A stretch of DNA of 64,000 bases from Escherichia coli (GTDB lineage: Bacteria; Pseudomonadota; Gammaproteobacteria; Enterobacterales; Enterobacteriaceae): NCBI RefSeq assembly GCF_003790525.1, contig NZ_CP033635.1. One strand, 5' to 3'. A program made the position numbers and the translations under genes. Below the pieces are notes generated by a model. That model ran no database searches. It saw only the letters and a list, made by a program, of their open reading frames with translations, and was not told where the DNA came from. Of the stretch, positions 21,085-49,100 are shown one piece after another; the first letter of the stretch is position 1, and each line of letters begins with the position of its first letter.

Positions 21085-21821
21085 GCGTTTTCAGCCAGTT
21101 CCTGTGCCATCAGGGCGCGCACTTTTTCCAGGCATGCTGGGGTGTCGACGCCCGGACCGGTTGCGGCAACCTCAAATGTACGGATGTTGATCCCCGCGCT
21201 CATCAACCGCAGCTGCTCCAGTGATTCTGCCTGCTCCTGCATGGACTCCGGTAACTGGCTGTAGTTTTGCAGCACATCGCGACGATAAGCGTAAATACCA
21301 ACGTGTTTCAGGTAGCGCGCTTTTTCAGCATTACGCGGATAGGGAATCGGCGAACGGCTGAAATAAAGCGCATCCTGGCGGGTATTTACCACCACTTTTA
21401 CCGTGCTTGGCTCGGTCGCTTCTTCGGCAGAAATCGCGTGGCATAGCGTTGCCACTGGCAACGCGGGATCATCACGCATTCCTTGTAGCAGCGTTTCTAC
21501 ATCCCGCGGGCGAATCATTGGTTCGTCGCCCTGCAGGTTAATGTAGATATCTGCCTCGACTTTATGCATCACCTCGACCAGCCGATCGGTGCCGGATTCA
21601 TGATCGTTGCGCGTCATGATGGCTTTCCCGCCAAATGCCTGCACGGCCTTTTCAACACGCTGATCGTCTGTTGCCACCCAAACTTCTGCGACGCCCGCCA
21701 CCTGTAACGCACGCTCGTAAACATGCTGGATCATCGGTTTACCAACAATATCGAGCAGTGGCTTACCCGGCAGGCGCGATGAGCCATAACGAGCCGGGAT
21801 GACAATAACAGCTTTGCTCAT
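21081..21821 (-). CDS. kpsU: CMP-Kdo synthetase KpsU
   Basis: 246 aa; N-terminus [22 protein letters not shown] typical of KdsB/KpsU cytidylyltransferases. Confidence 0.9.
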
Positions 21822-21830
21822 TTCAACTCC

Positions 21831-23510
21831 TTACAAAGACAGAATCACTTTTGCACCCACCGCCAGCTGATAGAGGATGGTGGAAATACCACGGGTAACT
21901 TCAATGTTTTTCGATTCATATTTCGGCAGAACCATAATCTCATCGCCCGGTTTGAGTGAATCCACATCTTCTGCGTTGACGGCTGCACCGTTCTGACGAA
22001 TGACGATAATTCTGGCGTTACCCGATTTCTGCGTCAGGCCACCACATTTCTCGATGTAATCCTCGGTGGTCATACCCTTCTGCCAGCTCACCGCGTTCGG
22101 GAACAGCACTTCGCCATGAACCATAACCAGCGATGTTTTCTCCGGAATATTGATGACGTCGCCATCTTCAAGCAGAACAGAATCAATATTGGATTCGTTG
22201 AGGATCACTTCACCTTTCGGAACAACGGTGCGTGCTTTCGCCACAAAGCGGCTGATCAGTTGTGCTTCCTGCATTCGCAGGCTGGCTTCTTCTTTGGTCG
22301 ATGACTGGGCAGAAAGTGATGCTTCCTCCAGCTTTTGCAGCGAGAGATTCAGCATCTCTTTCTGACGCTGAGCCACTGATGGGCGATAAAGCTGAACTGC
22401 GTTCATCTGCGACATGCTGTTCGGGCGGACTTTTTCCAGAACCGCACGCATAGTGGAACCATAAGGCAGTACCATGGCATGTTCACCGGAGTGTGCGCCT
22501 TCAACCCGCACCTGAATGGTGCCGGCATAGCGGTCAGTGCTCACGATTAAGGTATCGCCATTTTGCAACATACGGCCTGGCGCAGAACTGATCGGATAGT
22601 ATTCGCTGCGTTTTTGCAGCCCCTGTTTACGCATAATCGTAATGTGAGTCGCGCCAGGCTTAGGGCGCGCCCAGCTCAACGCTTCCGTTACGGGAATGCT
22701 GCTTTCGCGGAACTCAAAGTCGTAGCTGTTAAAGACATCGCCCTGAACGCTGAAAGTATGCTGACGCGGCCCGACGATGATGGTGTCACCATCGGCGAAC
22801 TGCGAAAGCCCCAGTTTGCCGTTCAGCAGGAAGTCGTACAGGTTGACGTTGGAGCGCACGCGGTTACCGCGCTTGACCACAATATCAACGTAACTTCCGC
22901 GCTCTGGATCAACGCCGCCAGCCTTGATCAGATAATTGAGTAACGAATCAGACGTCACACCGCCATACAGACCAGGATTACGCACAAATCCGGTCACGTA
23001 CACTTTTACTGGCTGCGCCTGTAATAAGGAGGCGTAGACGTTGACGTTGGACTGGTACACTTCCTTCACTTTTGATGTAACCAGAGTGTTCAACTGACTA
23101 TTGCTAACCCCGGCAACTTTCACCGGACCAACGTTTGGCAGAAAAATATTACCTTTGGGATCAATCTGTAATGCACCATCAAAGGTGAACGCACCCCACA
23201 AGCGAACCTGAATGCTATCACCCGGATTCAGAATATAGTCAGGGTTGAATCCTACCGTCGCACCGCTATCCGCGCTGGTGCCGTTGAAAAGTTGAGCACC
23301 AAACATACGGCTCATTACCACCGGCGGTGCGGGCGGCGGGGTATTGTCGAAGCCGCTCATGTTTTGCGTATCCGACTGTTGCCCGTTCAGAATACCGGTA
23401 AGCGGCGCGGCTCCTGTAAGGTTTGGGTCAGCGTTAATATCAATGGCCGCGCTGGCCTGCGCCGCGTGACAGGCGGCAATCAGTAAAATTGATTTAAATA
23501 ATTTCATCAC
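21831..23510 (-). CDS. kpsD: capsule export outer-membrane protein KpsD
   Basis: 559 aa with signal peptide; region 1 order between kpsE and kpsU. Confidence 0.85.
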   Translation of the reverse strand: MMKLFKSILLIAACHAAQASAAIDINADPNLTGAAPLTGILNGQQSDTQNMSGFDNTPPPAPPVVMSRMFGAQLFNGTSADSGATVGFNPDYILNPGDSIQVRLWGAFTFDGALQIDPKGNIFLPNVGPVKVAGVSNSQLNTLVTSKVKEVYQSNVNVYASLLQAQPVKVYVTGFVRNPGLYGGVTSDSLLNYLIKAGGVDPERGSYVDIVVKRGNRVRSNVNLYDFLLNGKLGLSQFADGDTIIVGPRQHTFSVQGDVFNSYDFEFRESSIPVTEALSWARPKPGATHITIMRKQGLQKRSEYYPISSAPGRMLQNGDTLIVSTDRYAGTIQVRVEGAHSGEHAMVLPYGSTMRAVLEKVRPNSMSQMNAVQLYRPSVAQRQKEMLNLSLQKLEEASLSAQSSTKEEASLRMQEAQLISRFVAKARTVVPKGEVILNESNIDSVLLEDGDVINIPEKTSLVMVHGEVLFPNAVSWQKGMTTEDYIEKCGGLTQKSGNARIIVIRQNGAAVNAEDVDSLKPGDEIMVLPKYESKNIEVTRGISTILYQLAVGAKVILSL

Positions 23511-23530
23511 AAACTCATTCAGCGACAGCG

Positions 23531-24679
23531 TTAGTCTCGGTGATCTTCAATAACAGCCAGCAACAGTTTCAGGGTGCCGAACAGCAGGCAGCACACCAGT
23601 AACCAGCAGGCGATCAAATAAGGGATATTTGGAAAAGACGATTCCTGCGGCAACTGTGGCGAACTGATCACTGACAGCACCTTGAGCTTACGAGCCGCTT
23701 CTACACGGGTCTTTTCAATGGAGGTCAGGGTCAGTTTGTACAGCTCGGTGTTGAACTCTACTTTTGATTTGATTTCTTCAAAATCCACCGCCATACGGTT
23801 TAGCTTGTCACCCTGCGGCGCTGTGATTTTGCTTTTTTCTTCGTCAATTTGTGCCTGCAATGACTGAATCGCATTACGCGCACTCACAACTTGCGGGGCG
23901 TCCTCACGCAGATACGTCAGCAAGTTCCGCAGGTCCGCTTCCATCTGGATCTTCTGGCCCATCAGCGTATTCACTAACGTGCTCGCCGCCTGTGCCTGTG
24001 CCTGTGGATCCAGAACGTTGTTGTTGTCTTGATAAGAGAGCAATTCCGCTTTGCTGGCGTCCAGACGCTGGCGTGCCTTTTCCATCTCCGTTTCTGCAAA
24101 GGCAAGCTGGTCACGCGCGATGCGATGTGACATCTCATTGATAAAGCGCTCTGACTCTTTCAGCACGGTTTGGTTAAACTTAAGCGCAAATTCCGGGCTA
24201 AAGCCCTGCGTCTGAATATTCAGTAATCCGGTTTTATCGTCATACGAGACGTTGATACGGTCCTTGTAGTACTTCAGGAAGCCTTCTGCGGTTTCATCCT
24301 TGCTAAGATGATTAAGAAAATCGAGCCCGCTGTGGCTAAACGCTTCACGAAAATTTAGTTGCTTATCCAGCGCCGCCAGCATATCCGGCGAGTTGATGTA
24401 CTCTTTCAGATACAACGCATCTTCTGCGGAACTGGGGTTAGAGGCACCCAGAAGCAGACCAAAATTCAGGCTGCCGCTGTTTAAATCATCCGAGCGTTTA
24501 ATGGCGACTTTCGACTCGCTCATATAGCGAGGCTGGCTGAAGATAGCCAGATAGATCAGCAGCACCGCCATCGGTGTCAGAATGATGATTTTCGCCAGGT
24601 GTTTTTGGATATCTGCCAGTGAGATGGCAGACAGACGAGCACGCATCCAGGATACGGCAGACTTCACTTTTATCAACAT
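23531..24679 (-). CDS. kpsE: capsule export inner-membrane protein KpsE
   Basis: 382 aa, N- and C-terminal TM segments with coiled-coil middle; region 1 order. Confidence 0.85.
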   Translation of the reverse strand: MLIKVKSAVSWMRARLSAISLADIQKHLAKIIILTPMAVLLIYLAIFSQPRYMSESKVAIKRSDDLNSGSLNFGLLLGASNPSSAEDALYLKEYINSPDMLAALDKQLNFREAFSHSGLDFLNHLSKDETAEGFLKYYKDRINVSYDDKTGLLNIQTQGFSPEFALKFNQTVLKESERFINEMSHRIARDQLAFAETEMEKARQRLDASKAELLSYQDNNNVLDPQAQAQAASTLVNTLMGQKIQMEADLRNLLTYLREDAPQVVSARNAIQSLQAQIDEEKSKITAPQGDKLNRMAVDFEEIKSKVEFNTELYKLTLTSIEKTRVEAARKLKVLSVISSPQLPQESSFPNIPYLIACWLLVCCLLFGTLKLLLAVIEDHRD

Positions 24680-24750
24680 GTAACGATTATCAAAGTTTCA
24701 GTGGGGCGCAAACTCAATGAGAGACTAACCTCTCGAACCCCGTTGCTTAA

Positions 24751-25734
24751 TTAGTCGAAAATGCGCACAAGGCCAGTGACTTTATTTGCCTTGTTGGTCA
24801 CCAATAATGTTGAGACGCGGTGCTTTTGCATTTTTTCTTCCGCTTCAATGATCATGGTGTCTTCCGGTAGCGTCAGCGGTTCACGTGTCATCATCTGCGC
24901 AGCCGTGGCGGATGTCAGAGAATCCTCTTTTTCCATAAAGCGACGCAGGTCACCGTCGGTGATAATGCCCGCTAGCCCACCTTCTGCGTCTTCTACCATC
25001 ACCATTCCCTGGCATCCGCTGGTGATACGTTGAATCACGGTTTTAAATGACGCATCCAGCTGTACCGCAGGAACATCATGCTGCATGACATCAGCAACGC
25101 GGGTCAGCAGGCGACGACCTAATGAACCGCCCGGGTGATAGCGCGCAAAATCATTCGGCATAAATTTGCGTTGGTGGATCATGGCAATCGCCAGCGCATC
25201 GCCGATCGCCATCGTCAGCGTGGTAGACGTTGTTGGTGCAAGATTATTCGGGCAGGTTTCATTCGCCATGTGGAGTTCCAGCACGGCATCAGCATTTTTC
25301 GCCAGCGTGGAATTTCCATTATTGGTAATGGCGATAATTCGGTTGCCGAAATTTTTCAGTGAAGGAACTAGCTTGAGGATTTCATCCGTTTCACCGCTGG
25401 CAGAAATAAGGATCAGAAGATCGTAAGGCGTAATCATGCCCAGATCGCCATGGAAAGCTTCTGCAGGATGAATAAAGAAACTAGGCGTACCCGTAGAGGC
25501 CAGCGTCGCTGACATTTTACGACCGACATGCCCTGATTTACCCATTCCCGAAAGAATAACGTGACCTTTACAGTTCATTATCAAATTAAGGACTCGCTGG
25601 TACTGCCCGGAATCCAGTTGTTTAGACAAGTTTTGTAATGCTGCGCCTTGTTCTGCCAGAGTCTGGCGAACAGAGGTAATTAGATATGGATCGATAGTAC
25701 TGCTCTGGTCATCAGGTAAATGTCTTTCAGACAT
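24751..25734 (-). CDS. kpsF: arabinose-5-phosphate isomerase KpsF
   Basis: SIS domain plus tandem CBS domains; start set at ATG 25734 (MSERHL) preceded by AAGGAG SD rather than the longer track ORF. Confidence 0.85.
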   Translation of the reverse strand: MSERHLPDDQSSTIDPYLITSVRQTLAEQGAALQNLSKQLDSGQYQRVLNLIMNCKGHVILSGMGKSGHVGRKMSATLASTGTPSFFIHPAEAFHGDLGMITPYDLLILISASGETDEILKLVPSLKNFGNRIIAITNNGNSTLAKNADAVLELHMANETCPNNLAPTTSTTLTMAIGDALAIAMIHQRKFMPNDFARYHPGGSLGRRLLTRVADVMQHDVPAVQLDASFKTVIQRITSGCQGMVMVEDAEGGLAGIITDGDLRRFMEKEDSLTSATAAQMMTREPLTLPEDTMIIEAEEKMQKHRVSTLLVTNKANKVTGLVRIFD

Positions 25735-26500
25735 ATCAGCTCCTTTGCACGGAAATAATGCCACAGTCACAACAAACCCGAACCCACTATAATTTATTTA
25801 TGCTAAATCAATGGGTTGTAACAAAATTTTCAATGAATATAAAACCATGGTCAGTCCATGCTTATATGCAGGACTTATCACCTTCTTATTAAGTCGCAAT
25901 GTCTCATGGAGGTGCGAAGATGCTGCAATATTACAGGCGAGAAGGGGAACCAAATTTTGCCCACCTATTTAACACACCCCTACATTATGAACAAGGAATT
26001 TAGGATTTTTATCATTTATTAAAATGTTTCCTACTTGACTATTAAGGCAAAAAACAATTTATCAATTGATTATTTCCTTGTAAAAAAAGAACGTATGACT
26101 ATGTTATTAATAAATAAAACACGCAAATAATGGTGATGTTGTTTTGTGATTAACTATTTAAGTGCGGCATAATAAACAGGTTGACAATTTCTATGTAAAG
26201 AAGAGGAAAATAATAAAATTTTAGCGGTGACTATTGAATGATATGATAGTTGTGGTGTTGATTATTTCTGGTAATGAATGCGGAATTAAATCTGGCCGGA
26301 TTGTATTTTTGCTATATCTATTTTTCAGGAGATTATTATTAAATAGAAAAATAACAATGGTGATTATCTCCGATTGAGCTGGAGTCACGTATGCCAGCGA
26401 GTGCTTTCTTCCGGGCCTTCCTTCACTTCAGAGAAAGAGCCTATGGAAAAGAGGCAATCATCAGGCTCTTTTTGAGTCATATGCGCCGATAATCAACTGT
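25735..26500 (-). promoter_or_regulatory. AT-rich kps region 1 promoter/regulatory region upstream of kpsF
   Basis: ~0.75 kb AT-rich non-coding DNA 5' of kpsF; promoter elements not assigned. Confidence 0.4.
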
Positions 26501-26519
26501 CTTGAACGTAAAAATTATG

Positions 26520-26800
26520 GAGCAACATGATGCTACGATTCATTTCACTCTTCGTTCTTTCTGAGCATTGCGTTCAGGATGGTCAGCAATTTACGCATAC
26601 AGTCAACCAGCGCCACTTTTTTGGTTTTTCCGGCTGCTGGCAGATGCATGTAAAACGCCTTTATCACCGGATTAAACCAGGTTACCACAAGCGCTGCCAT
26701 GTGCAGGGCTGCTCTTGCCTCCGTACGCGCACTGGCGTCGTTCGGCCAGCAGATATGTGTGGGATAACAGGGATGTTATGTGAACTGAACTGTGTTTTGT
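26520..26800 (-). mobile_element. IS110-family transposase 3' fragment (remnant)
   Basis: Minus-strand translation ...[43 protein letters not shown] resembles the conserved C-terminus of IS110-family transposases; N-terminal part absent. Confidence 0.55.
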
Positions 26801-26881
26801 TAGCGGGGGATGTTTATTGATGATTCGGGAGTGTTTAAGACCTGATGGCGTTATGCTCCCAAGTTTATTTTATATAAAGAT

Positions 26882-26912
26882 CCAAAAGCAAAAACCCGCC
26901 TTGTGGGCGGGT
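26882..26912 (-). terminator. rho-independent terminator downstream of the tRNA-Phe 3' end
   Basis: Stem CCCGCC/GGCGGG (26895-26910) followed on the minus strand by a T-run. Confidence 0.6.
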
Positions 26913-26925
26913 TCTTAAGAATTAG

Positions 26926-26975
26926 TGGTGCCCGGACTCGGAATCGAACCAAGGACACGGGGATTTTCAATCCCC
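26926..26975 (-). other. pheV: 50-nt 3' fragment of tRNA-Phe (acceptor/T-arm through anticodon-stem region): island junction direct repeat
   Basis: Minus strand reads ...GGGGATTGAAAATCCCCGTGTCCTTGGTTCGATTCCGAGTCCGGGCACCA, matching the 3' ~50 nt of tRNA-Phe as I recall it; 5' part of the tRNA is replaced by unrelated/degenerate sequence. Confidence 0.75.
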
Positions 26976-27068
26976 ATGTCATAAAATTCAGATAGTTACG
27001 GGCATGTCAAGTTGTTGTCGAAGTCTTTCATGCGCATCCGATCACATAACTGTCGATAGGACGCAGAT

Positions 27069-27947
27069 ATGAAAATACTTCCCGTTGTCTCAACAAAAGG
27101 TGGCGAAGGTAAATCAACACAATCCGCTAACCTGGCTGGTTTTCTCGCCGATGCAGGTATCCGTACCCTGCTGATTGACGGAGATCATGCTCAGCCCACG
27201 GCAAGCAACATCTTTCCGCTGACATATGAAGCGTCAGCCGGTCTTTTTGAGTTGCTGATGCGCACGGCTGACCTCAGTTATCCCGATAACATCATTTCCC
27301 GCACAGCTATCGACGGACTCGATCTGATAGTCTCCAATGACCCTCATGAGCAGTTAAAAACTGCGATGCTTCACGCCCCGGATGGTCGTCTGCGCCTCCG
27401 GAATGTCCTGCAGCATCCGCTTTTTCTGAACAACTACGATGTCATTATAGTTGATTCTCAGGGTGCGCGTTCTGTCATGCTCGAAATGATTGTGCTGTCG
27501 GCCACTGATTCGGTTGTCGGGATGGTCAATCCGGTACTCCCTGATGTGCGCGAGTTTATTCGCGGCACTGTCAACGTTATGGAGAACCTGCTGCCTTACC
27601 GGGAACTGGGGATACCCCTGCCGAAAGTACGCACGCTGGTTAACTGCATGGATTATACGGCACTGGCCAGGAAGACGCTGGATGAGCTGGCCGGAATTAT
27701 TCAGACCGGTCGTTACAGCAGGCAGTTACCTGAAGGTGCGGTTTCCCTTCTTTCCACACAGATTTACGACCTGAATATTTACAAGCAGGGGCATGCGGCT
27801 GGTCAACCCGTACATCGTCTCGAAAAAGAATCCACACGTCGCAGTGATTCCGCGCTTGTCACGATGCACAGCCTGGCCTGTGAACTATTTCCTGAGTGGA
27901 AACAGGCGTTTGACGGGCTACTGGCTAACGGGGGAATACGTCAGTGA
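27069..27947 (+). CDS. parA: ParA/Soj-family partition ATPase (ICE end-proximal)
   Basis: 292 aa; deviant Walker A KGGEGKST; first gene inside the island next to the tRNA fragment, as in PAPI-1-type ICEs. Confidence 0.85.
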   Translation: MKILPVVSTKGGEGKSTQSANLAGFLADAGIRTLLIDGDHAQPTASNIFPLTYEASAGLFELLMRTADLSYPDNIISRTAIDGLDLIVSNDPHEQLKTAMLHAPDGRLRLRNVLQHPLFLNNYDVIIVDSQGARSVMLEMIVLSATDSVVGMVNPVLPDVREFIRGTVNVMENLLPYRELGIPLPKVRTLVNCMDYTALARKTLDELAGIIQTGRYSRQLPEGAVSLLSTQIYDLNIYKQGHAAGQPVHRLEKESTRRSDSALVTMHSLACELFPEWKQAFDGLLANGGIRQ

Positions 27948-28530: not shown

Positions 28531-29021
28531 GAGCAAACTTAACGGCTTGTTGAACGCTGATACTGTTATCGTCCAGAAAAAACCAGCGGCGGCTGTTAAT
28601 CAGCCAGTGTCCGAGCCAGCAAAGTCGGTAAGCGAGCTTCCGGTCAGCTCCGGGAAAGATTTCTGTTCCCTGGTCAAAGAAGGTTTTGCACCGTTCCACA
28701 TCGTCGGTGCTCATACCTCCGACTTTCCAGTTTTCATAATATTTTGCCATGTTGCCATCCTCATCATGGTTGTTATCAATGCCGGACGGCAGTTGCTGAT
28801 GATTTGTGTTCATAAGGTATTTCTCTTCGTAAACATGTTGATTATGAGCGCAAATATGCTGTACGTACCTTCTGACCGGGGTCGGCAAACTTACCGGTCG
28901 GAAAATGTACAGAAAGTTATGGGCCTTTTATGCCCTGCAACTGTTCGTCCGGCACCCGTTTTCGTTTTTTTGCATGGTGGGTTTGCTGTGAAACAGGCTC
29001 CGTTTGCCCGGGAGGTGGCGT

Positions 29022-30410
29022 ATGTCTGAACGCTATATTCCATGCTCCGTTGATGCAGAGCAGGCCGTGCTGGGCGGCCTGATGCTCGATAATGAACGCT
29101 GGGATGAGGTGGTACTGATGCTCCGGGGGGAGGATTTTTCTCTGGCCGCACACCGGGTGATATTCCGCACCATGTCAGAGCTGGCAACCAGCGGTCAGCC
29201 GTTCGACCTCATCACGCTGAGTGAGCATATTGAGAAAACAAACAATATTGAGGCACTGGGTGGTTTCGCTTATCTGGCTGAACTCAGCAAAAATACGCCT
29301 TCTGCAGCCAATATTATCGCTTATGCCCGTATTGTTGCTGAAAAGAGCATGCTGCGTCAGTTGCAGGAGACGGGGAATGCGCTGATTACGGATGTGGCCG
29401 CACCGGATGCGACACCACGCACTGTTCTTGAATCCGCTGAACGTCGGCTCTTTTCACTTTCACAGACTGGCATGTTGCATGAGCGATGTGAAGTCAGTCT
29501 CACCTCGGCTATGGAGCTGGCGCTGCGTCAACTGGAAGAGGGACTGAACGCCGGCGGGATGACGGGCACGCCCACGGGATTTGATGAACTGGATGAGATG
29601 ACCTGTGGTCTGCAGCCCGGCGACCTCATTCTTCTGGCTGCACGCCCGTCTATGGGGAAAACAGCGCTGGGCCTTACCTTCTGTCTTAATGCCCTGTGTA
29701 ACCGGACCGATGAAACGGTATTTCTTTTCAGTATCGAAATGTCCCGGGAGCAGCTGATTCTGCGTGTCCTGTCAATGCTCTCCAGGGTGGAGCTGACACG
29801 TCTTCGCAGCAGCATGATGGATGATGAAGAGTGGGCGAGAGTCACGGCAACCATGGGACGCTTCATGAATGAAGCGTCATTCATCGGAGATGGAAACCGC
29901 CTGATAATTGATGACACCTCCTTCCAGACGCCGTCATCGCTGCGTGCCAGCGCCCGTCGTTATGTCCGTCTGTATGGCAGACCTTCCCTGATAATGGTTG
30001 ATTACCTCCAGCTGATTCGTTCTCCGGACCAGGAGAACCGAACGCAGGAAATTGCGGAAATATCCCGCGCGCTTAAGGCGTTAGGTAAAGAGCTGGGATG
30101 CCCGGTACTGGCACTGTCTCAGCTTAACCGTCAGGTGGAGCAGCGGGCGGATAAACGCCCCAATAACGGTGACCTGCGTGATTCCGGGGCGCTGGAGCAG
30201 GATGCTGACCTCATTATGTTTATTTACCGTGACGAGGTTTATAACTCCGGCACGCTGGATAAGGGCGTTGCTGAAATCATTGTGAGCAAACAGCGGCAGG
30301 GACCAACCGGAACGATACGGGTGAACTTCGACGGCCGCTACACCCTGTTTTCACCGTTTGAACGTGGATGGAATTTTGACCGTGCCGGAGGAAATGCGTA
30401 TGTCAATTAA
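29022..30410 (+). CDS. dnaB: DnaB-like replicative DNA helicase
   Basis: DnaB N-terminal domain plus RecA-like core (Walker A ARPSMGKTAL); start set at ATG 29022 with GGAGGTGG SD instead of the TTG at 29004. Confidence 0.85.
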   Translation: MSERYIPCSVDAEQAVLGGLMLDNERWDEVVLMLRGEDFSLAAHRVIFRTMSELATSGQPFDLITLSEHIEKTNNIEALGGFAYLAELSKNTPSAANIIAYARIVAEKSMLRQLQETGNALITDVAAPDATPRTVLESAERRLFSLSQTGMLHERCEVSLTSAMELALRQLEEGLNAGGMTGTPTGFDELDEMTCGLQPGDLILLAARPSMGKTALGLTFCLNALCNRTDETVFLFSIEMSREQLILRVLSMLSRVELTRLRSSMMDDEEWARVTATMGRFMNEASFIGDGNRLIIDDTSFQTPSSLRASARRYVRLYGRPSLIMVDYLQLIRSPDQENRTQEIAEISRALKALGKELGCPVLALSQLNRQVEQRADKRPNNGDLRDSGALEQDADLIMFIYRDEVYNSGTLDKGVAEIIVSKQRQGPTGTIRVNFDGRYTLFSPFERGWNFDRAGGNAYVN

Positions 30411-38555: not shown

Positions 38556-38556
38556 T

Positions 38557-39384
38557 GGTTAAAAATCGTACGGTGTTGGCAGTGCCAACAGTGGTTAAAA
38601 ATTGTGCGGTGTTGGCAGTGCCAACAGTGATTAAAAAATGTACGGTGTTGGCAGTGCCAACAGTGGTTAAAAATTGCGCGGTGTTGGCAGTGCCAACAGC
38701 GGTTAAAAAGTGTACGGCGTTGGCAGTGCCAACAGTGATTGAAAAATGTACGGTGTTGGCAGTGCCAACAGTGATTAAAAAATGTACGGTGTTGGCAGTG
38801 CCAACGGTGATTAAAAAATGTACGGTGTTGGCAGTGCCAACAGTGGTTAAAAATTGCGCGGTGTTGGCAGTGTCAACAGTGGTTAAAAATTGTGCGGTGT
38901 TGGCAGTGCCAACAGTGATTAAAAAATGTACGGTGTTGGCAGTGCCAACAGTGGTTAAAAATTGCGCGGTGTTGGCAGTGCCAACAGCGGTTAAAAAGTG
39001 TACGGCGTTGGCAGTGCCAACAGTGATTGAAAAATGTACGGTGTTGGCAGTGCCAACAGTGATTAAAAAATGTACGGTGTTGGCAGTGCCAACGGTGATT
39101 AAAAAATGTACGGTGTTGGCAGTGCCAACAGTGGTTAAAAATTGCGCGGTGTTGGCAGTGCCAACAGTGGTTAAAAATTGTGCGGTGTTGGCAGTGCCAA
39201 CAGTGATTAAAAAATGTACGGTGTTGGCAGTGCCAACAGCGGTTAAAAAGTGTACGGCGTTGGCAGTAGCAACAGCGATTAAAAAATGTACGGTGTTGCC
39301 AGTGGCAACAGTGGTTAAAAAGTGTCCGGCGTTGCCAGTGGCAACAGTGTTTGAAAATTGTACTGAGTTGGCACTGCCAACATG
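38557..39384. repeat. array of 23 tandem 36-bp direct repeats, each with a 17-bp palindrome TGTTGGCAGTGCCAACA (iteron/centromere-like)
   Basis: Directly counted units of 36 bp from 38557; higher-order periodicity of 288 bp (8 units); last units degenerate. Confidence 0.9.
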
Positions 39385-42559: not shown

Positions 42560-42725
42560 TGCTTTGCAGCCAACCAATCTCCCGGTGGTCTGAGAGGGAG
42601 GCTTACGCGACCACACTGTCATCTTCGGATGACCAGCCAATGTTCCAGCAGTCTGAGAGGAGCGCCTTCGGGTGACTGCCAGCCAATGTTTCAGCGATCT
42701 GAGAGAAACGCCTTCGGGTGATTGC
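42560..42725 (+). repeat. three imperfect direct repeats (~45-60 bp) each ending in a UUCG-tetraloop hairpin
   Basis: Units contain CAGCCAA...TCTGAGAG...(CATC TTCG GATG or CGCC TTCG GGTG). Confidence 0.6.
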
Positions 42726-42937
42726 AATATCCTCGTAGCCTGAAAGGGGATGCCTTTATGGCGGTACATCCGTTTAGCCTCTGGGAACGGATATCACCAC
42801 TGGTGATTGAGGTACGTTTAACTGCACAGACAGCCGGAAATTCAGCTGATTCCGGCATCCCCGACGGGAACTATCACTCCCGTCAGGGCTGGTGATGTTC
42901 TCCGTCATATCTTTTTTTACTCCATGGAGAAATCATC

Positions 42938-44321: not shown

Positions 44322-45290
44322 GTGAGTGAAAAAGTTAACAAAATCACTATGATTCATGACGGGGCGTTCAAGAAGACGCTTGAAGATCCCGCCGCAGTAA
44401 GGGACTTTCTTGAACAGGTCTTGACACACGATCAGATATCCCGCTGTAATCTTGATACAATAGAAGTTGAAAAGAATTCGTTCGTGACGGAAAGTTTGCG
44501 TCAGCATGCCTGTGATGTTTTGATCAGCATGAAGACAAACGACGGCAGGGACGGATACATTTATACCTTAATCGAGCACCAGAGTTCGCCGGATAAATTC
44601 ATCCCGCTGCGTATGATGCGATATATCCTGGCTGTAATGGAGCAACATGTTGAAAAGCATAAGTGTGCACCTGTGGTGATCCCCGTGTTGTTTTATCATG
44701 GTGCAATGCGGCCATATCCGTATCCGCTGAACTGGGTGGATTGTCTGGATGACCCGGAGTACGGACGGGAGATTTATGGCGAGTCAAAGTCATTCAGTCT
44801 GGTGGATGTCAGTACGCTTGATGATGATGAAATTGAGCAGTATCGCCGGATGGCGGCGCTGATGTACACCATGAAGTCCGGAACTCAAGGTGATTTGATT
44901 GAGCTGATTGGTAAATCGATCACACTGACGGATAAGTATGGCAGTAGCATTCACCTGAATACGGTGCTTACTTATCTGATGGAACTTTACCAGATGGATG
45001 TTGCTGAACTTTTTGAAGCAATATCCACACACTATCCCAGCCATAAGGGGGTGATTATGACGATAGCGGAACAACTGGAAGAGAAAGGTCGGGTTGAAGG
45101 TCTGGAGAAAGGCCTTGAGAAAGGCCTTGAGAAAGGCCGTGCTGAAGGCCGTGCTGAAGAGCGTCAAAAAGCGCTTGCAGAAACTTATGCATCTGTCCGT
45201 CGCATGAGCGATATGGGGATGTCAACGGAAGTTATTAAGCAGGCACTTCATCTTTCTGATGAACAGATTCAGGAAGCGCTTAATAATTAA
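44322..45290 (+). CDS. Rpn (YhgA-like) family recombination-promoting nuclease
   Basis: GTG start at 44322 with GGAGG SD; N-terminal segment HDGAFKKTLEDPAAVRDFLE...GYIYTLIEHQSS resembles E. coli RpnA-E as recalled; the track ORF from 44043 is an upstream extension overlapping ssb. Confidence 0.7.
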   Translation: MSEKVNKITMIHDGAFKKTLEDPAAVRDFLEQVLTHDQISRCNLDTIEVEKNSFVTESLRQHACDVLISMKTNDGRDGYIYTLIEHQSSPDKFIPLRMMRYILAVMEQHVEKHKCAPVVIPVLFYHGAMRPYPYPLNWVDCLDDPEYGREIYGESKSFSLVDVSTLDDDEIEQYRRMAALMYTMKSGTQGDLIELIGKSITLTDKYGSSIHLNTVLTYLMELYQMDVAELFEAISTHYPSHKGVIMTIAEQLEEKGRVEGLEKGLEKGLEKGRAEGRAEERQKALAETYASVRRMSDMGMSTEVIKQALHLSDEQIQEALNN

Positions 45291-45768
45291 CCTCGCATCG
45301 TAATGATGTGGCAGAGCGCGACTGATGCGTCAGAACGTGTGATGCCCTGTGAACACAGCGCCTGCCATTGTGCAGGCGTTTTTTTATCAATCAGTCTGGT
45401 AAATTGTGATGGAACTTTACCAGATGGATTTTGCTGAACTTTCTGAAGCAATATTCACACACTATCCCAGCCACAAGGGGGTGATTATGACGATAGCGGA
45501 ACAACTGGAAGAGAAAGGCCTTGAGAAAGGCCGTGCAGAAGAGCGTCAAAAAGCGCTTGCAGAAACCTATGCATCTGTCCGTCGCATGAGTGATATGGGG
45601 ATGTCAACAGAAGTTATTAAGCAAGCTCTTCAGCTTTCTGATGAACAGATTCAGGAAGCGCTTAATAATTAACCTCACATCGTAATGATGTGGCAGAGCG
45701 CGACTGATGCGTCAGAATGCGTGATGCCCTGTGAACACAGCGCCTGCCATTGTGCAGGCGTTTTTTTT
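44979..45768 (+). repeat. near-tandem direct duplication (~0.36-0.41 kb per copy) of the rpn 3' end plus terminator
   Basis: Copy 1 44979-45385, copy 2 45409-45768; both end in hairpin GCCTGCCATTGTGCAGGC plus T-run. Confidence 0.85.
45409..45672 (+). CDS. stand-alone duplicate of the Rpn C-terminal domain (87 aa, RpnS-like)
   Basis: Near-identical to the last ~100 codons of the upstream rpn gene, with a short internal deletion of GLEKG repeats; own ATG; own terminator copy. Confidence 0.6.
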   Translation: MELYQMDFAELSEAIFTHYPSHKGVIMTIAEQLEEKGLEKGRAEERQKALAETYASVRRMSDMGMSTEVIKQALQLSDEQIQEALNN

Positions 45769-45862: not shown

Positions 45863-46441
45863 ATGAAAATATCCCTTCTTTTTTCCGCGCTGTCTGTCTG
45901 TGTGTTGCTGGCGGGGTGCCAGAGTCCGCAAAAACTGCAGCAGAGGGCGGCTGCCGTCCCGGTACCGTCGGTGACAGTCAGCAACAATGTCCGTCCGGCA
46001 AATCCGGATGTGTACGCCGGTGCGGCGACACCGGAGGTGGTGCGTTATGACCGCTATCTGCTGGTTAACACGGCACCGGATACGGTACAGCGTGACCCGC
46101 TTTCCCAGGTGATTGACATCCGCATTCCGGCATCACTGAAGCCGACGGTGGCGGATGCGATGCGTTATGCCCTGAAACAGTCCGGCTACACACTCTGCGC
46201 CACGGGGCCTGCCAACGGTGTGCTCTACCGTCAGCCGCTACCGGCCGTGCAGTACCAGACCGGGCCGGTCAGACTGCGGAGCGCGCTGCAGATGATGGCG
46301 GGGCCGGCATGGCAGCTTGAGGTGGATGATGTGCAGCGCGTGGTCTGTCACAGTCTGCGTGAGGGTTATCAGTTACCGGCACGCCAGCTGGCGCCGGTAC
46401 CGGCGGTGGTGAAGGTATCCGGTGCGGAGCAGAAAAAATGA
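45863..46441 (+). CDS. pilL: PilL-like lipoprotein (first gene of ICE conjugation module)
   Basis: 192 aa; lipoprotein signal LLAGC; position as in PAPI-1-type ICEs. Confidence 0.65.
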   Translation: MKISLLFSALSVCVLLAGCQSPQKLQQRAAAVPVPSVTVSNNVRPANPDVYAGAATPEVVRYDRYLLVNTAPDTVQRDPLSQVIDIRIPASLKPTVADAMRYALKQSGYTLCATGPANGVLYRQPLPAVQYQTGPVRLRSALQMMAGPAWQLEVDDVQRVVCHSLREGYQLPARQLAPVPAVVKVSGAEQKK

Positions 46442-47217
46442 GTGAAAAGCAACAGGAGATATCAGCCGCTGCAGGTGGTTCAGGTGGCACCACACCGTCA
46501 GGAAGGGCGAAACGGCGTCCCTCTCCCGGTCTGTTCGCAGGGCTGGTGACGGTGGTGATGATGGCGATCGCGGTTGCCGGTCTGGTTCGTTATACGGGAG
46601 AGCAGGACAGGCGAATGACTGCGCTGGCGGTGCAGATGAAGGCGTATTCTGATGCGCTCGCCTTGTCCGGAACGGAACTGGTACCACTGAGGGAGAGGCT
46701 GGCTGAGACCGAAAAACAGCTGAAGAGTGTGGCGGAACGTATTTCTCAGCTGGAAAAGCGTCCTGCACTGACGGAGGAAGAGCATGCGCGTACGGGAGAG
46801 ATGGCCGCCAGCCTGGCATCACTGCAGACCTCACTGGCGCAACAGGGAGAAACGCTTCGCACGTATGAGCAGCGACTGGAGAAGGTGGAGAAGACTTCAG
46901 TCACCCCGGTATCACCGTCATCTGCGAAAGGCGCGGGCGGGACGATGAAGGGCACAGCGGCGGTTGCGCCACAGAAGAAACGAATGTCTGCCGGCGTGCC
47001 GGTGGTCAGTCGTACCGCGCCGTTTGTTCTGACCGGGACAGAGCAGCGGGGAGGCCGTACGTATGCGGCAGTGGCCCCCCGTGGATTCAGCAGTCTTGCT
47101 GATGTGACGTTACTGGGTGAAGGGGAGAGCACGACAGGCTGGGTGCTTGAGCGTGCAGGACGTGGCGAGGCCACGTTCCGGGTGAATGGTCGTCAGGTCC
47201 GGGTCATGGTGGAGTGA
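46438..47217 (+). CDS. ICE conjugation-module membrane protein
   Basis: 259 aa; N-terminal TM anchor, coiled-coil. Confidence 0.55.
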   Translation: MSEKQQEISAAAGGSGGTTPSGRAKRRPSPGLFAGLVTVVMMAIAVAGLVRYTGEQDRRMTALAVQMKAYSDALALSGTELVPLRERLAETEKQLKSVAERISQLEKRPALTEEEHARTGEMAASLASLQTSLAQQGETLRTYEQRLEKVEKTSVTPVSPSSAKGAGGTMKGTAAVAPQKKRMSAGVPVVSRTAPFVLTGTEQRGGRTYAAVAPRGFSSLADVTLLGEGESTTGWVLERAGRGEATFRVNGRQVRVMVE

Positions 47218-47221
47218 GAAA

Positions 47222-47941
47222 ATGAAGCTGAAAAGTCTGTCACTGGCGCTCATGCTGCTGTCCCTGCAGGCGATGGCCGCCGTACAGGAGAGTACGCAGC
47301 AGGGAACGCGCACCTCCTCATCCTCTCAGGTCAGTACCACCACACAGGAACTGCAGCAGCAGGCCGGGCAGTGGGGACTCAGTGAGGAAGATTACCGGCG
47401 TTACCGTACCCTGATGGAAGGTCCCCGCGGTATTCAGTCTCCGGGGCTGGACCCGCTGACGGTACTGGGGATTGAAGCGCGGACGGATGCAGAGCGCAGG
47501 GTGCTGGCCGAAAAATGGGTTAAAGCTGAGTATGAACGCACTGAGAAGGAACTGGCTTTCCAGCGTGAAGTGAATGCCGCCTGGAAACGGTTGTATCCGG
47601 GGGTGATGCCGGTCAGCCTGGGGAATTCTGCCGGCATCGCCCGTGACACCGGGGGACGTCTTGCCCTGTTTGTCAGGTCGAAAGACTGCAGTACCTGTGA
47701 TGCGCGGCTGGCCGCCGTGCTTTCATCCGGTCGTCAGGTGGATATTTACCTGGTCGACAGTCAGGGAAATGATGAAAAGCTGAGGCAGTGGGCCCGGGAG
47801 CACAGTATCCCGGCAGACCGTGTGCGCAGTCGCCACATCACGCTGAACCATGACGGCGGTCGCTGGCTGCGGTTTGGGGAGGGGAGAATGCCGGTGGTAC
47901 TTCAGCAGGGGGCTGACGGATGGCGCGTGGCAGCCTTCTGA
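47222..47941 (+). CDS. ICE conjugation-module periplasmic protein with thioredoxin-like CxxC (CSTC) motif
   Basis: Signal peptide from ATG 47222; CSTC motif. Confidence 0.55.
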   Translation: MKLKSLSLALMLLSLQAMAAVQESTQQGTRTSSSSQVSTTTQELQQQAGQWGLSEEDYRRYRTLMEGPRGIQSPGLDPLTVLGIEARTDAERRVLAEKWVKAEYERTEKELAFQREVNAAWKRLYPGVMPVSLGNSAGIARDTGGRLALFVRSKDCSTCDARLAAVLSSGRQVDIYLVDSQGNDEKLRQWAREHSIPADRVRSRHITLNHDGGRWLRFGEGRMPVVLQQGADGWRVAAF

Positions 47942-48576
47942 TGTCGCTGCTGCTGATGGCAGTCAGCATTCCGGCGGGGGCGGCGCTGCATGATATCCCG
48001 GAGGGATACGTGCGTGTGGCGGAACAGCATGGAGTTCCGGCAGAAGTACTCTATGCCGTCTCGCTGACCGAGACGGCCATGGTCCCCTCCGCCATTGGTG
48101 CTGTAATGAAAAAACGGAATGAGGATTACAGGGTACCAGCAGTGGCACGTCCCTGGCCCTGGACCATCAATGTGGCGGGCCGGGGATACCGCTATGCCAG
48201 TCGACTGGAGGCCTGGCAGGCCCTCCAGGTTTTTCTGAAACGATATCCGGCCCGACGGATTGATGTGGGGATAGCCCAGGTCAATCTGGGCTGGAACGGG
48301 CACCGTTTTGCGTCCACATGGGCGGCATTTGACCCGTACACCAGTCTGAACACGGCGGCGGTCATCCTGAGAGAATGTCGCCGTCGCCATCCTGACAGCT
48401 GGCTGCAGGCTGCCGGCTGTTATCACCATCCGGCAGGCGGCGCACCCGCAGTACGCTACATCGCGCTGGTGAGGCGGCATATTGACCGCCTCCACCGTGA
48501 TGCGGTCAGTACGTCAGGTGTGACTGCCATGAATCCCCGTTATATCCGGACAGAACCCCGGGAGTTAACCCCATGA
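47920..48576 (+). CDS. putative lytic transglycosylase-like protein (ICE conjugation module)
   Basis: 218 aa, signal peptide; EVLYAVSLTETAM segment suggestive of SLT-type catalytic region. Confidence 0.5.
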   Translation: MARGSLLMSLLLMAVSIPAGAALHDIPEGYVRVAEQHGVPAEVLYAVSLTETAMVPSAIGAVMKKRNEDYRVPAVARPWPWTINVAGRGYRYASRLEAWQALQVFLKRYPARRIDVGIAQVNLGWNGHRFASTWAAFDPYTSLNTAAVILRECRRRHPDSWLQAAGCYHHPAGGAPAVRYIALVRRHIDRLHRDAVSTSGVTAMNPRYIRTEPRELTP

Positions 48577-49100
48577 AACGATTTAAACGATATGTCATGA
48601 CGACCGCAACGGGTCTGTTGCTGTGCGCGGCTCAGGCCGGCGCGGAGCTCAGGGTGATTGCTGACCTTGGTGGCAGTGATGCCGGCAGGTTTTATGAAGC
48701 AATAAACCGCCAGGTGGACAGCGGAACGTCGTCGCCTGTCACGGCGCTGCTGCCGCAGGGGGAGAGTGCGATGCTGCCGGTTTCCACGCCGGAAATGTCT
48801 CCCGGAGAGGTGACGCCGAGGCCACTGCAGTTACCGGGGCTGGGGGCACTGTTCCTCGTGGGGGATGATGCACTCTCCCGTCAGTGGCTGCAGGCGAATG
48901 CGGCCGCGCTGCTTGAAAGGAAGGCTGCCGGTATGGTGGTGAGCGTGACGAATGAGAGCGGTCTGCAGGCGCTGCGGGCGCTGGCTCCCGGTGTGATGAT
49001 GGTACCGGCTTCCGGTTCAGCACTGGCCCGCCGTCTGCAGCTTGACCACTGGCCGGTGCTGATAACGGACAGTGGTATCAGCAGTGTGGTGATGCCGTGA
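48573..49100 (+). CDS. ICE conjugation-module secreted protein
   Basis: 175 aa, signal peptide. Confidence 0.5.
   Translation: MKRFKRYVMTTATGLLLCAAQAGAELRVIADLGGSDAGRFYEAINRQVDSGTSSPVTALLPQGESAMLPVSTPEMSPGEVTPRPLQLPGLGALFLVGDDALSRQWLQANAAALLERKAAGMVVSVTNESGLQALRALAPGVMMVPASGSALARRLQLDHWPVLITDSGISSVVMP

Follow-up and report, generated by a model that had tools for sequence, protein, structure and literature searches.

Tyrosine integrases use tRNA genes as integration sites, and an anticodon-loop class of such sites is distinguished, reportedly set out by Williams in 2002 in Nucleic Acids Res 30:866. The island SPI-7 of Salmonella Typhi sits at a tRNA-Phe gene and is flanked by a partial repeat of that tRNA. 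The original ICEEc2 of Roche et al. 2010 is said to have been described at pheU. An ICE of this kind at pheV/pheU, with a well-understood structure and a published site, is already represented by ICEEc2. This element, from the avian E. coli BEN374 (Roche et al. 2010, J Bacteriol 192:5026), is assigned to the pKLC102/PAGI-2 family and has pheV and pheU as its hotspots (PMC11537424); elsewhere it is described as a PAPI-like element in tRNA-Phe, which excises and transfers using a type IV pilus (PMC6761156, PMC4458695). ICEs of this type from clinical strains, attributed to Roche 2010, moved into pheV or pheU of MG1655 and gave rise to Hfr-like chromosome mobilisation (PMC13127887). The pheV/pheU ICEs of this family matter in practice since they can mobilise chromosomal DNA (PMC13127887).

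The locus considered here lies in a stretch of 64,000 nucleotides of Escherichia coli DNA (contig NZ_CP033635.1), referred to as the window. A sequence-only reading of it, made without database searches, had taken positions 26520-26980 for an island junction consisting of an IS110 transposase remnant, a native terminator and a 3' fragment of tRNA-Phe, the distal attachment repeat of an element integrated in pheV. The 3' part of pheV was very probably split off here by an ICE of ~76 kb, through site-specific recombination by a tyrosine integrase.

The orphan pheV fragment and its empty site

The interval does contain the three features named, and a capsule gene flanks them:

24751 to 25770, minus strand: kpsF, the first gene of group 2 capsule region 1, forming the flank on the terminator side (100% identical DNA is annotated as KpsF/GutQ isomerase)
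26545 to 26727, minus strand: IS110-family transposase pseudogene, C-terminal 60 codons only (NF033542 match; also annotated in the strain with the empty site)
26889 to 26917, minus strand: native pheV intrinsic terminator with a 12-pair stem, a 5-nt loop and a T-run (identical sequence after the intact pheV at the empty site)
26926 to 26975, minus strand: exact copy of the 3' 50 nt of tRNA-Phe (pheV) (identity with the empty site; no intact tRNA; same breakpoint in 7 complete genomes)

The identity and the boundaries of the fragment were established directly. Read on the minus strand from 26975 to 26926 it is GGGGATTGAAAATCCCCGTGTCCTTGGTTCGATTCCGAGTCCGGGCACCA, and within the tRNA it starts with the opening base of the anticodon stem, on the 5' side, and finishes with CCA. 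All of its 50 positions agree with the 3' 50 nt of the intact pheV found at the empty site of strain CUVET17-1418. Sub-patterns of 36, 23 and 22 nt taken from the fragment occur once each in the window, for a chance expectation of 0 (100 shuffles). The claim that only the 3' ~50 nt of tRNA-Phe is present was upheld by every search: no full 76-nt tRNA-Phe occurs in the window even with 3 mismatches, ARAGORN returned zero tRNAs across the whole 64 kb, and an intact tRNA-Phe at this position, which the same reading had named as evidence against itself, was looked for in the window and is absent. A second copy of the repeat is likewise absent from the window, as searched with the full tRNA and the 36-, 23- and 22-nt sub-patterns at up to 3 mismatches. 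Over the fragment the Rfam tRNA model reaches 14.6 bits, below its gathering score of 29, and a permissive Rfam scan of 26800-27100 gave only sub-threshold matches, which came from the terminator hairpin and the partial tRNA.

The segment 25800-28000 of the window was used as a query against 5,426 complete E. coli genomes. The whole junction was present in seven of them, with a best identity across the junction of 99.5% and none identical. Many genomes matched query positions 1-1176 only, i.e. up to window position 26975, where an intact tRNA-Phe is annotated in them. Among these empty-site strains, the best match is CUVET17-1418, a canine urinary isolate, with 100% identity to window 21800-26975 and 99.996%, or one mismatch, over window 1-22782. 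Past 26975, its sequence passes into the 5' 26 nt of a pheV that is intact, and on to yqgA and speC. The genes follow one another as gsp genes, kps regions 3-2-1, kpsF, IS110 remnant, tRNA-Phe, yqgA, speC and nupG, so that an intact pheV stands on the same flank with no island; a comparison with empty pheV sites had been suggested as a check. The unoccupied site diverges exactly at the boundary of the repeat, in CUVET17-1418 and in many other genomes. The tRNA is therefore pheV, the insertion breakpoint lies exactly at 26975/26976, and the left 27 kb of the window belongs to the normal chromosome, in a lineage whose kps locus immediately adjoins pheV. The flank is 99.996-100% identical to that of an ICE-free strain, which indicates a very recent acquisition; judged against this near-isogenic strain, the comparison shows an apparently recent and clean ICE insertion.

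As is found at attachment sites, the fragment thus reproduces the 3' portion of the targeted tRNA and continues into the DNA that naturally lies downstream of that tRNA. It represents the distal repeat of the ICE attachment site and derives from the host, in keeping with what had been proposed for an element in pheV; it would be called attR when attL denotes the intact tRNA (naming of PMC11537424).

The terminator begins 8 nt past the CCA end of the fragment and its 12-pair hairpin occupies 26917-26889 on the minus strand, on the kps side, where it had been placed. When translated, 26545-26727 aligns with NF033542 over profile positions 282-342 of 343 only (E 1.4e-08, 34.3 bits for a cut-off of 140), hence the remnant is restricted to the C-terminal 60 residues; no complete IS110 transposase (~340 aa) is encoded at 26545-26727, and RefSeq labels the identical DNA 'IS110 family transposase, incomplete, missing N-terminus'. 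As both the remnant and the terminator also occur at the empty site, they belong to the chromosome and not to the inserted element. Their presence was correctly noted, but not their role as features of the ICE junction: to judge from the empty site, they are pre-existing DNA of the pheV-kpsF spacer, outside the ICE and its junction. On the same chromosomal flank, kpsE lies beyond kpsF. The GC content goes down to 37-39% in the kpsF-pheV spacer and is 48-55% in the ICE; GC does not tell the ICE from the chromosome and is for this reason uninformative for the boundary.

The inserted element and its far end in relatives

The DNA to the right of 26975 is an ICE of the SPI-7 / pKLC102 / ICEEc2 kind, an identity that was likewise established directly. 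The following features were located in it:

26976 to 64000, plus strand: parA-proximal 37,025 bp of an ICEEc2 / SPI-7-type ICE, cut by the right edge of the window (collinear with the GF4 ICE)
27069 to 27947, plus strand: parA, a Soj-like partition ATPase and the first ICE gene, 93 bp inside the junction (100% identical to WP_001696181.1, 'ParA family protein')
29004 to 30410, plus strand: SPI-7-type replicative DNA helicase, dnaB-PI (NF040583, 685.5 bits, cut-off 655)
42617 to 42770, plus strand: STAXI RNA motif (the Rfam family name), between topoisomerase III and a STY4534-family gene (139.2 bits, gathering score 40.5)

The start of dnaB-PI as annotated in relatives corresponds to window position 29022.

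As had been stated, ICE genes begin on this side with parA, at 27069, and the SPI-7-type dnaB comes next. The stretch 26976-64000 comprises a maintenance and replication module, together with the greater part of the ICE-type type IV secretion genes. Protein names were taken from the RefSeq annotation of near-identical proteins (98-100% for the maintenance and replication set). On the replication side these are ParA, SPI-7-type DnaB, ParB, members of the STY4528, STY4534 and PFL_4669 families, topoisomerase III and Ssb; on the transfer side they are PilL, TraD, a conjugative ATPase and a run of TIGR03745-03759 'integrating conjugative element' proteins. The maintenance and replication genes of the family are accordingly all found (parA at the att end, SPI-7-type dnaB, parB, STY4528/STY4534-type genes, topB and ssb), and the type IV secretion module, with the TraD coupling protein, the conjugative ATPase and the TIGR03745-03759 proteins, is full length throughout, at 45863-63873.

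Over 24345-64000, the window runs collinear with GF4, a strain from chicken meat (Switzerland), at 99.2-99.7% identity. All 49 intact GF4 CDSs of this stretch were found in the window, 47 of them full length, and they are 96.9-100% identical to those of GF4 save for a tandem-repeat protein (85.5%, with 24 extra residues). The differences from GF4 are extra copies of a 36-nt tandem repeat at 38556-39382, where the repeat protein has 276 aa, and a deletion of ~260 bp near 49730, which truncates a hypothetical gene. The change in repeat number and this deletion could conceivably affect function.

The far end of the element was observed in close relatives: an intact tRNA and an integrase had been predicted beyond the right edge of the window, and both were found in GF4, VTB96815v, YZLc1-3 and EC17CM6. 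In GF4, the ICE continues ~38.7 kb past the equivalent of window base 64000 with ArdA, a shufflon recombinase, a type IVb pilus cluster, a UvrD-like helicase, TraI and a site-specific integrase of 329 aa. The integrase gene is followed by 197 bp, an intact tRNA-Phe, yqgA and speC, and the GF4 element measures 75,890 bp with one repeat copy counted. The GF4 integrase has the tyrosine-recombinase catalytic domain PF00589 (E 4.3e-20); its best NCBIfam match is the archaeal XerA/integron-integrase model, followed by XerD and XerC, all below their curated cut-offs. A tyrosine recombinase gene is absent from the window itself. In VTB96815v, YZLc1-3 and EC17CM6, both junctions are present in the same genome, 77-82 kb apart, and a far end with an integrase and an intact tRNA-Phe is also found in VTB96815v at pheV and in SF-088 at pheU. 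The predicted second copy of the 50-nt repeat was recovered in GF4 and VTB96815v (pheV) and, for the integrase-proximal end, in SF-088 (pheU), but as a 46/50 match and not as an exact one.

The junction between integrase and tRNA was detected in 36 of the 5,426 complete E. coli genomes. It adjoins yqgA (pheV) in most of them and dicD (pheU) in some, e.g. SF-088; many of the genomes that carry it are of poultry origin. CH4804, the donor in PMC13127887, carries a GF4-type junction of this sort at 99.2%.

Repeat asymmetry and the probable segment of strand exchange

Only one long part of the repeat is shared without change by the two ends:

26954 to 26975, minus strand: 22-nt block GGGGATTGAAAATCCCCGTGTC, anticodon stem-loop and variable loop (the sole long stretch identical at both ICE ends in relatives)

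Within this block, the anticodon stem is formed by 5-bp inverted arms around a 7-nt loop. The remainder of the repeat differs in the T-arm. The T-stem of the integrase-proximal tRNA in GF4, VTB96815v and SF-088 is GGTGG/CCGCC, whereas that of the parA-proximal fragment is CTTGG/CCGAG, which is of the E. coli type, as is the DNA downstream of it. The difference amounts to four compensatory changes that keep the base pairs, hence the identity of 46/50 between the repeats. At the integrase end, the 5' 26 nt of the tRNA and the DNA upstream of it are host DNA, and ICE DNA starts after the CCA end. The T-arm asymmetry was seen at pheV in GF4 and VTB96815v and, for the integrase-proximal end, at pheU in SF-088. 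That independent insertions share it is the pattern expected if strand exchange always takes place 5' of the T-arm. In the ICE variant of AH19B041, a T occupies the position of the first G of the block; the exchange would therefore also be bounded on the 5' side, which leaves ~21 nt centred on the anticodon loop. ICE variants with other end sequences (TUM1886 and AH19B041) break at the same position of the tRNA. Strand exchange is thus inferred to occur within the 21-22 nt of the anticodon stem-loop block. A distant ICE variant in NCTC9112 has an E. coli-type T-arm.

The T-arm also bears on the past of the element. The 33-mer GTGTCGGTGGTTCGATTCCGCCTCCGGGCACCA was found in at least 120 DNA stretches of representative genomes, often in two or more per genome, and its carriers include Vibrio, Aliivibrio, Photorhabdus, Xenorhabdus, Marinobacter and Alcanivorax. 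At each of the ten loci checked, it was part of a normal tRNA-Phe gene, and in Vibrio and Aliivibrio some of these lie in tRNA arrays. The chimeric pheV is identical at 76 of 76 positions to the native tRNA-Phe of Xenorhabdus ehlersii. It looks as if attP was shaped in a host whose tRNA-Phe is of the Xenorhabdus/Vibrio type. The rebuilt pheV should be functional, because its sequence already exists as a natural tRNA-Phe gene; with a Xenorhabdus/Vibrio-type T-arm it might behave slightly unlike the native tRNA.

The mechanism proposed for the locus combines these elements. The circular ICE would carry an attP resembling the portion of tRNA-Phe that extends from the anticodon stem through CCA, and recombination between attP and pheV, acting as attB, would fall within the anticodon stem-loop block. 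The 5' part of the host pheV would be joined at the integrase end to the ICE-borne 3' part, to give a tRNA-Phe that is complete and can be expressed. At the parA end, the 3' part displaced from the host gene would be left as a promoterless orphan of 50 nt with its own terminator, the IS110 remnant and kpsF behind it. The ICE would in this way retain its own T-arm at every cycle, and the host T-arm would stay in the orphan. The orphan has no coding role and would serve as one of the two recombination substrates from which the integrase excises the ICE and restores the native pheV, and the present copy of the ICE is probably still excisable.

Alternative readings and comparison with known systems

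Three other readings of the fragment were weighed against integration of an ICE in pheV. According to the least improbable of them, itself very unlikely, the window carries a decayed and fixed ICE-derived island whose integrase end was deleted or rearranged in the source strain, the fragment being a fossil. The far end falls outside the window, and rearranged copies are met with elsewhere: TUM1886 has the parA junction at pheV-kps and a GF4-type junction of integrase and tRNA at the other Phe tRNA locus, and in strain 64.1 the integrase adjoins an alpha-amylase gene. Arguments against decay are an ICE that is nearly undamaged in the window, as counted above over the GF4 CDSs, and the very recent acquisition indicated by the flank; four relatives with the same junction also have an intact far end, 76-82 kb off.

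It is scarcely credible that the fragment is instead the attR remnant of a GI-pheV island with a P4 integrase, unrelated to the neighbouring ICE. Islands of this type are commonly situated between pheV and kps, and they do end before kps in a partial pheV repeat (PMC11537424), and the fragment of GF4 has a 1-nt deletion (TCCGG-CACCA) that is typical of GI-pheV attR repeats. Their repeats measure 19-23 bp (PMC11537424), however, and not 50 nt with an exact match as here; ICE DNA begins right at the break, 26975/26976; and neither a P4-type integrase nor a second repeat was found in the window, which thus lacks the combination of P4-type integrase and 19-23-bp distal repeat that marks a GI-pheV. 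The length of the repeat, together with the empty-site strain, which joins an intact pheV straight to the same flank without any island, led to the rejection of this candidate. Nor is there any appreciable chance that the fragment forms, with 26 nt of the ICE end, a real but unusual tRNA gene. PGAP does annotate a 78-nt 'tRNA-Ser', equivalent to window 26924-27001, in VTB96815v, YZLc1-3 and EC17CM6, but ARAGORN finds nothing in the window or at the loci of these relatives, the Rfam score is the sub-threshold one given above, and the predicted fold comprises the anticodon and T hairpins only, with no acceptor or D stem. By the present reading of the sequence, 'Ser' also requires the Phe anticodon loop to be read one base off register. 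The annotation was rejected, as ARAGORN, Rfam and the predicted fold are all against it.

With integration of an ICE in pheV retained, the result has mainly annotation value: one boundary of a conjugative element of ~76 kb is fixed to the base, at 26975/26976, its insertion site is pheV, and a recurrent RefSeq mis-annotation as 'tRNA-Ser' is flagged at such junctions. The T-arm asymmetry is a cheap locator of the crossover segment that requires sequence only, and it gives hints of the previous hosts of the ICE. The known workings of such elements are unchanged by the result. Because the ICE directly adjoins the group 2 kps locus and pheV ICEs drive Hfr-like transfer (PMC13127887), kps could be among the first or last markers to be mobilised, which is an unlikely though conceivable outcome; if true, conjugation would be a route of capsule switching in this lineage.

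The element presents every feature of the ICEEc2, pKLC102/PAGI-2 and SPI-7 kind that the window can show, and the relaxase, the pilus and the integrase are seen in relatives (GF4). It resembles ICEEc2 in being an E. coli ICE at a tRNA-Phe gene with a PAPI/pKLC102-type core; its relatives have a pil cluster, TraI and an XerC-like integrase, occupy both pheV and pheU, and come in many cases from poultry. It differs in that the present copy is at pheV, directly beside kps, and it is likened to the BEN374 element by description and not by nucleotide identity. With SPI-7 of Salmonella Typhi, PAPI-1 and pKLC102, it shares a SPI-7-type DnaB above cut-off, the STY4528/STY4534 families and ParA/ParB, as well as topoisomerase III, Ssb and TIGR037xx ICE proteins. 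SPI-7 differs in its host species and its cargo, no viaB/Vi locus being present in the stretch examined, and PAPI-1 and pKLC102 differ in their use of tRNA-Lys (PMC6761156 / PMC4458695). The GI-pheV islands (PMC11537424) have in common with the element the tRNA gene, the kps side and a distal partial pheV repeat. They have a P4-type integrase and 19-23-bp repeats and are non-self-conjugative, in contrast to the 50-nt repeat, the XerC/D-like integrase of 329 aa (in relatives) and the conjugation module found here. Finally, the locus agrees with the anticodon-loop class of integration sites in its symmetric anticodon stem around a 7-nt loop and in an element that brings a replacement 3' part and leaves the tRNA intact. 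There is no difference in kind from that class; the detail added here is an ICE-borne replacement with four compensatory changes in the T-stem.

The chromosomal flank and its capsule locus

The chromosomal part of the window (1-26975), which comprises gsp genes, kps regions 3-2-1 and a spacer, differs by one base from the corresponding sequence of the canine UPEC strain CUVET17-1418. Since CUVET17-1418 is devoid of the ICE, this single difference makes the source strain look like a very recent ICE recipient within the CUVET17-1418 lineage. The capsule type encoded by kps region 2 is of the CDP-glycerol glycerophosphotransferase type. Two short elements were detected in this locus:

4256-4294, plus strand: JUMPstart element (53.6 bits)
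17137-17279, plus strand: Rfam match to isrN (123.7 bits)

A kpsM-type ABC permease gene (about 4323-5099) lies immediately downstream of the JUMPstart element, the arrangement that a region 3 promoter would be expected to have in a group 2 capsule locus. The isrN match is located within a frameshifted IS3-family transposase pseudogene (~16435-17544) between kps regions 1 and 2, and this 'sRNA' is probably IS sequence.

tRNA sequences at the ICE ends

At the chromosome-ICE junction, the RefSeq/PGAP annotation of three relatives (VTB96815v, YZLc1-3 and EC17CM6) contains a 78-nt 'tRNA-Ser' that spans the orphan tRNA-Phe fragment and 26 nt of the ICE end:

26924-27001, minus strand (2625-2702 in relative locus L002): equivalent of the annotated 'tRNA-Ser'

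This gene was not supported by ARAGORN, scored 14.6 bits with the Rfam tRNA model (gathering score 29) and folded without an acceptor or D stem. It is therefore probably a mis-annotation, one that recurs at such ICE/tRNA junctions.

Rebuilt or matching tRNA-Phe genes were located in four loci:

L004 29470-29545
L005 1621-1696
L006 1971-2046
L082 677-752

Four compensatory T-stem changes (GGTGG/CCGCC) are present in pheV/pheU as rebuilt by the ICE. The rebuilt tRNA-Phe agrees with the one native to Xenorhabdus ehlersii at 76 of 76 positions, and its 3' 33-mer is also native to Vibrio, Photorhabdus, Marinobacter and others. The native occurrence of this 33-mer hints at earlier hosts of the ICE.

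Repeats, RNA motif and deletion within the ICE

Three features of the ICE part of the window involve a motif or repeated sequences:

38556-39382, plus strand: 36-nt tandem repeat (23 copies, 89% matches)
42617-42770, plus strand: STAXI RNA motif (139 bits), between topoisomerase III and a STY4534-family gene
45129-45385 and 45511-45767: 257-bp direct repeat (94.6% identical)

The tandem repeat belongs to an ORF coding for 12-residue repeats (…TVLAVPTVIKKC…), whose product is 276 aa long in the window versus 252 aa in the closest occupied relative, GF4; an exact-protein look-up returned no other record of the 276-aa form. The GF4 ICE has a second STAXI copy (249 bp, 99.6% identical; L004 497-745) in its part beyond the window equivalent, upstream of the ArdA region. 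The direct repeat overlaps an Rpn-family nuclease gene at its 3' end, as well as the small ORF that follows. Downstream of a restriction-endonuclease-like gene, a 170-aa hypothetical gene lacks its first half through a ~260-bp deletion relative to GF4 (window ~49684-49930).

Variant junctions and other pheV elements

On the pheV-kps side, TUM1886 (L009 1424-1464) carries a different ICE-end sequence attached at an unchanged position in the tRNA, and it has its GF4-type integrase junction at the other Phe tRNA locus. In TUM9803, the integrase match ends short of the tRNA, and the annotation under it contains neither tRNA nor amylase. In strain 64.1, the integrase adjoins an alpha-amylase gene, for which the 'ICE in malS' offers a comparison (PMC13127887). 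The orphan fragment at the parA end of GF4 (L003 2582-2629) carries a 1-nt deletion (TCC-GGCACCA) that is absent from the window's fragment. For many GI-pheV islands of the P4 type, the 23-bp attR is given as this same variant (PMC11537424), and the shared deletion suggests past interplay between the ICE and P4-type GI-pheV elements at pheV.
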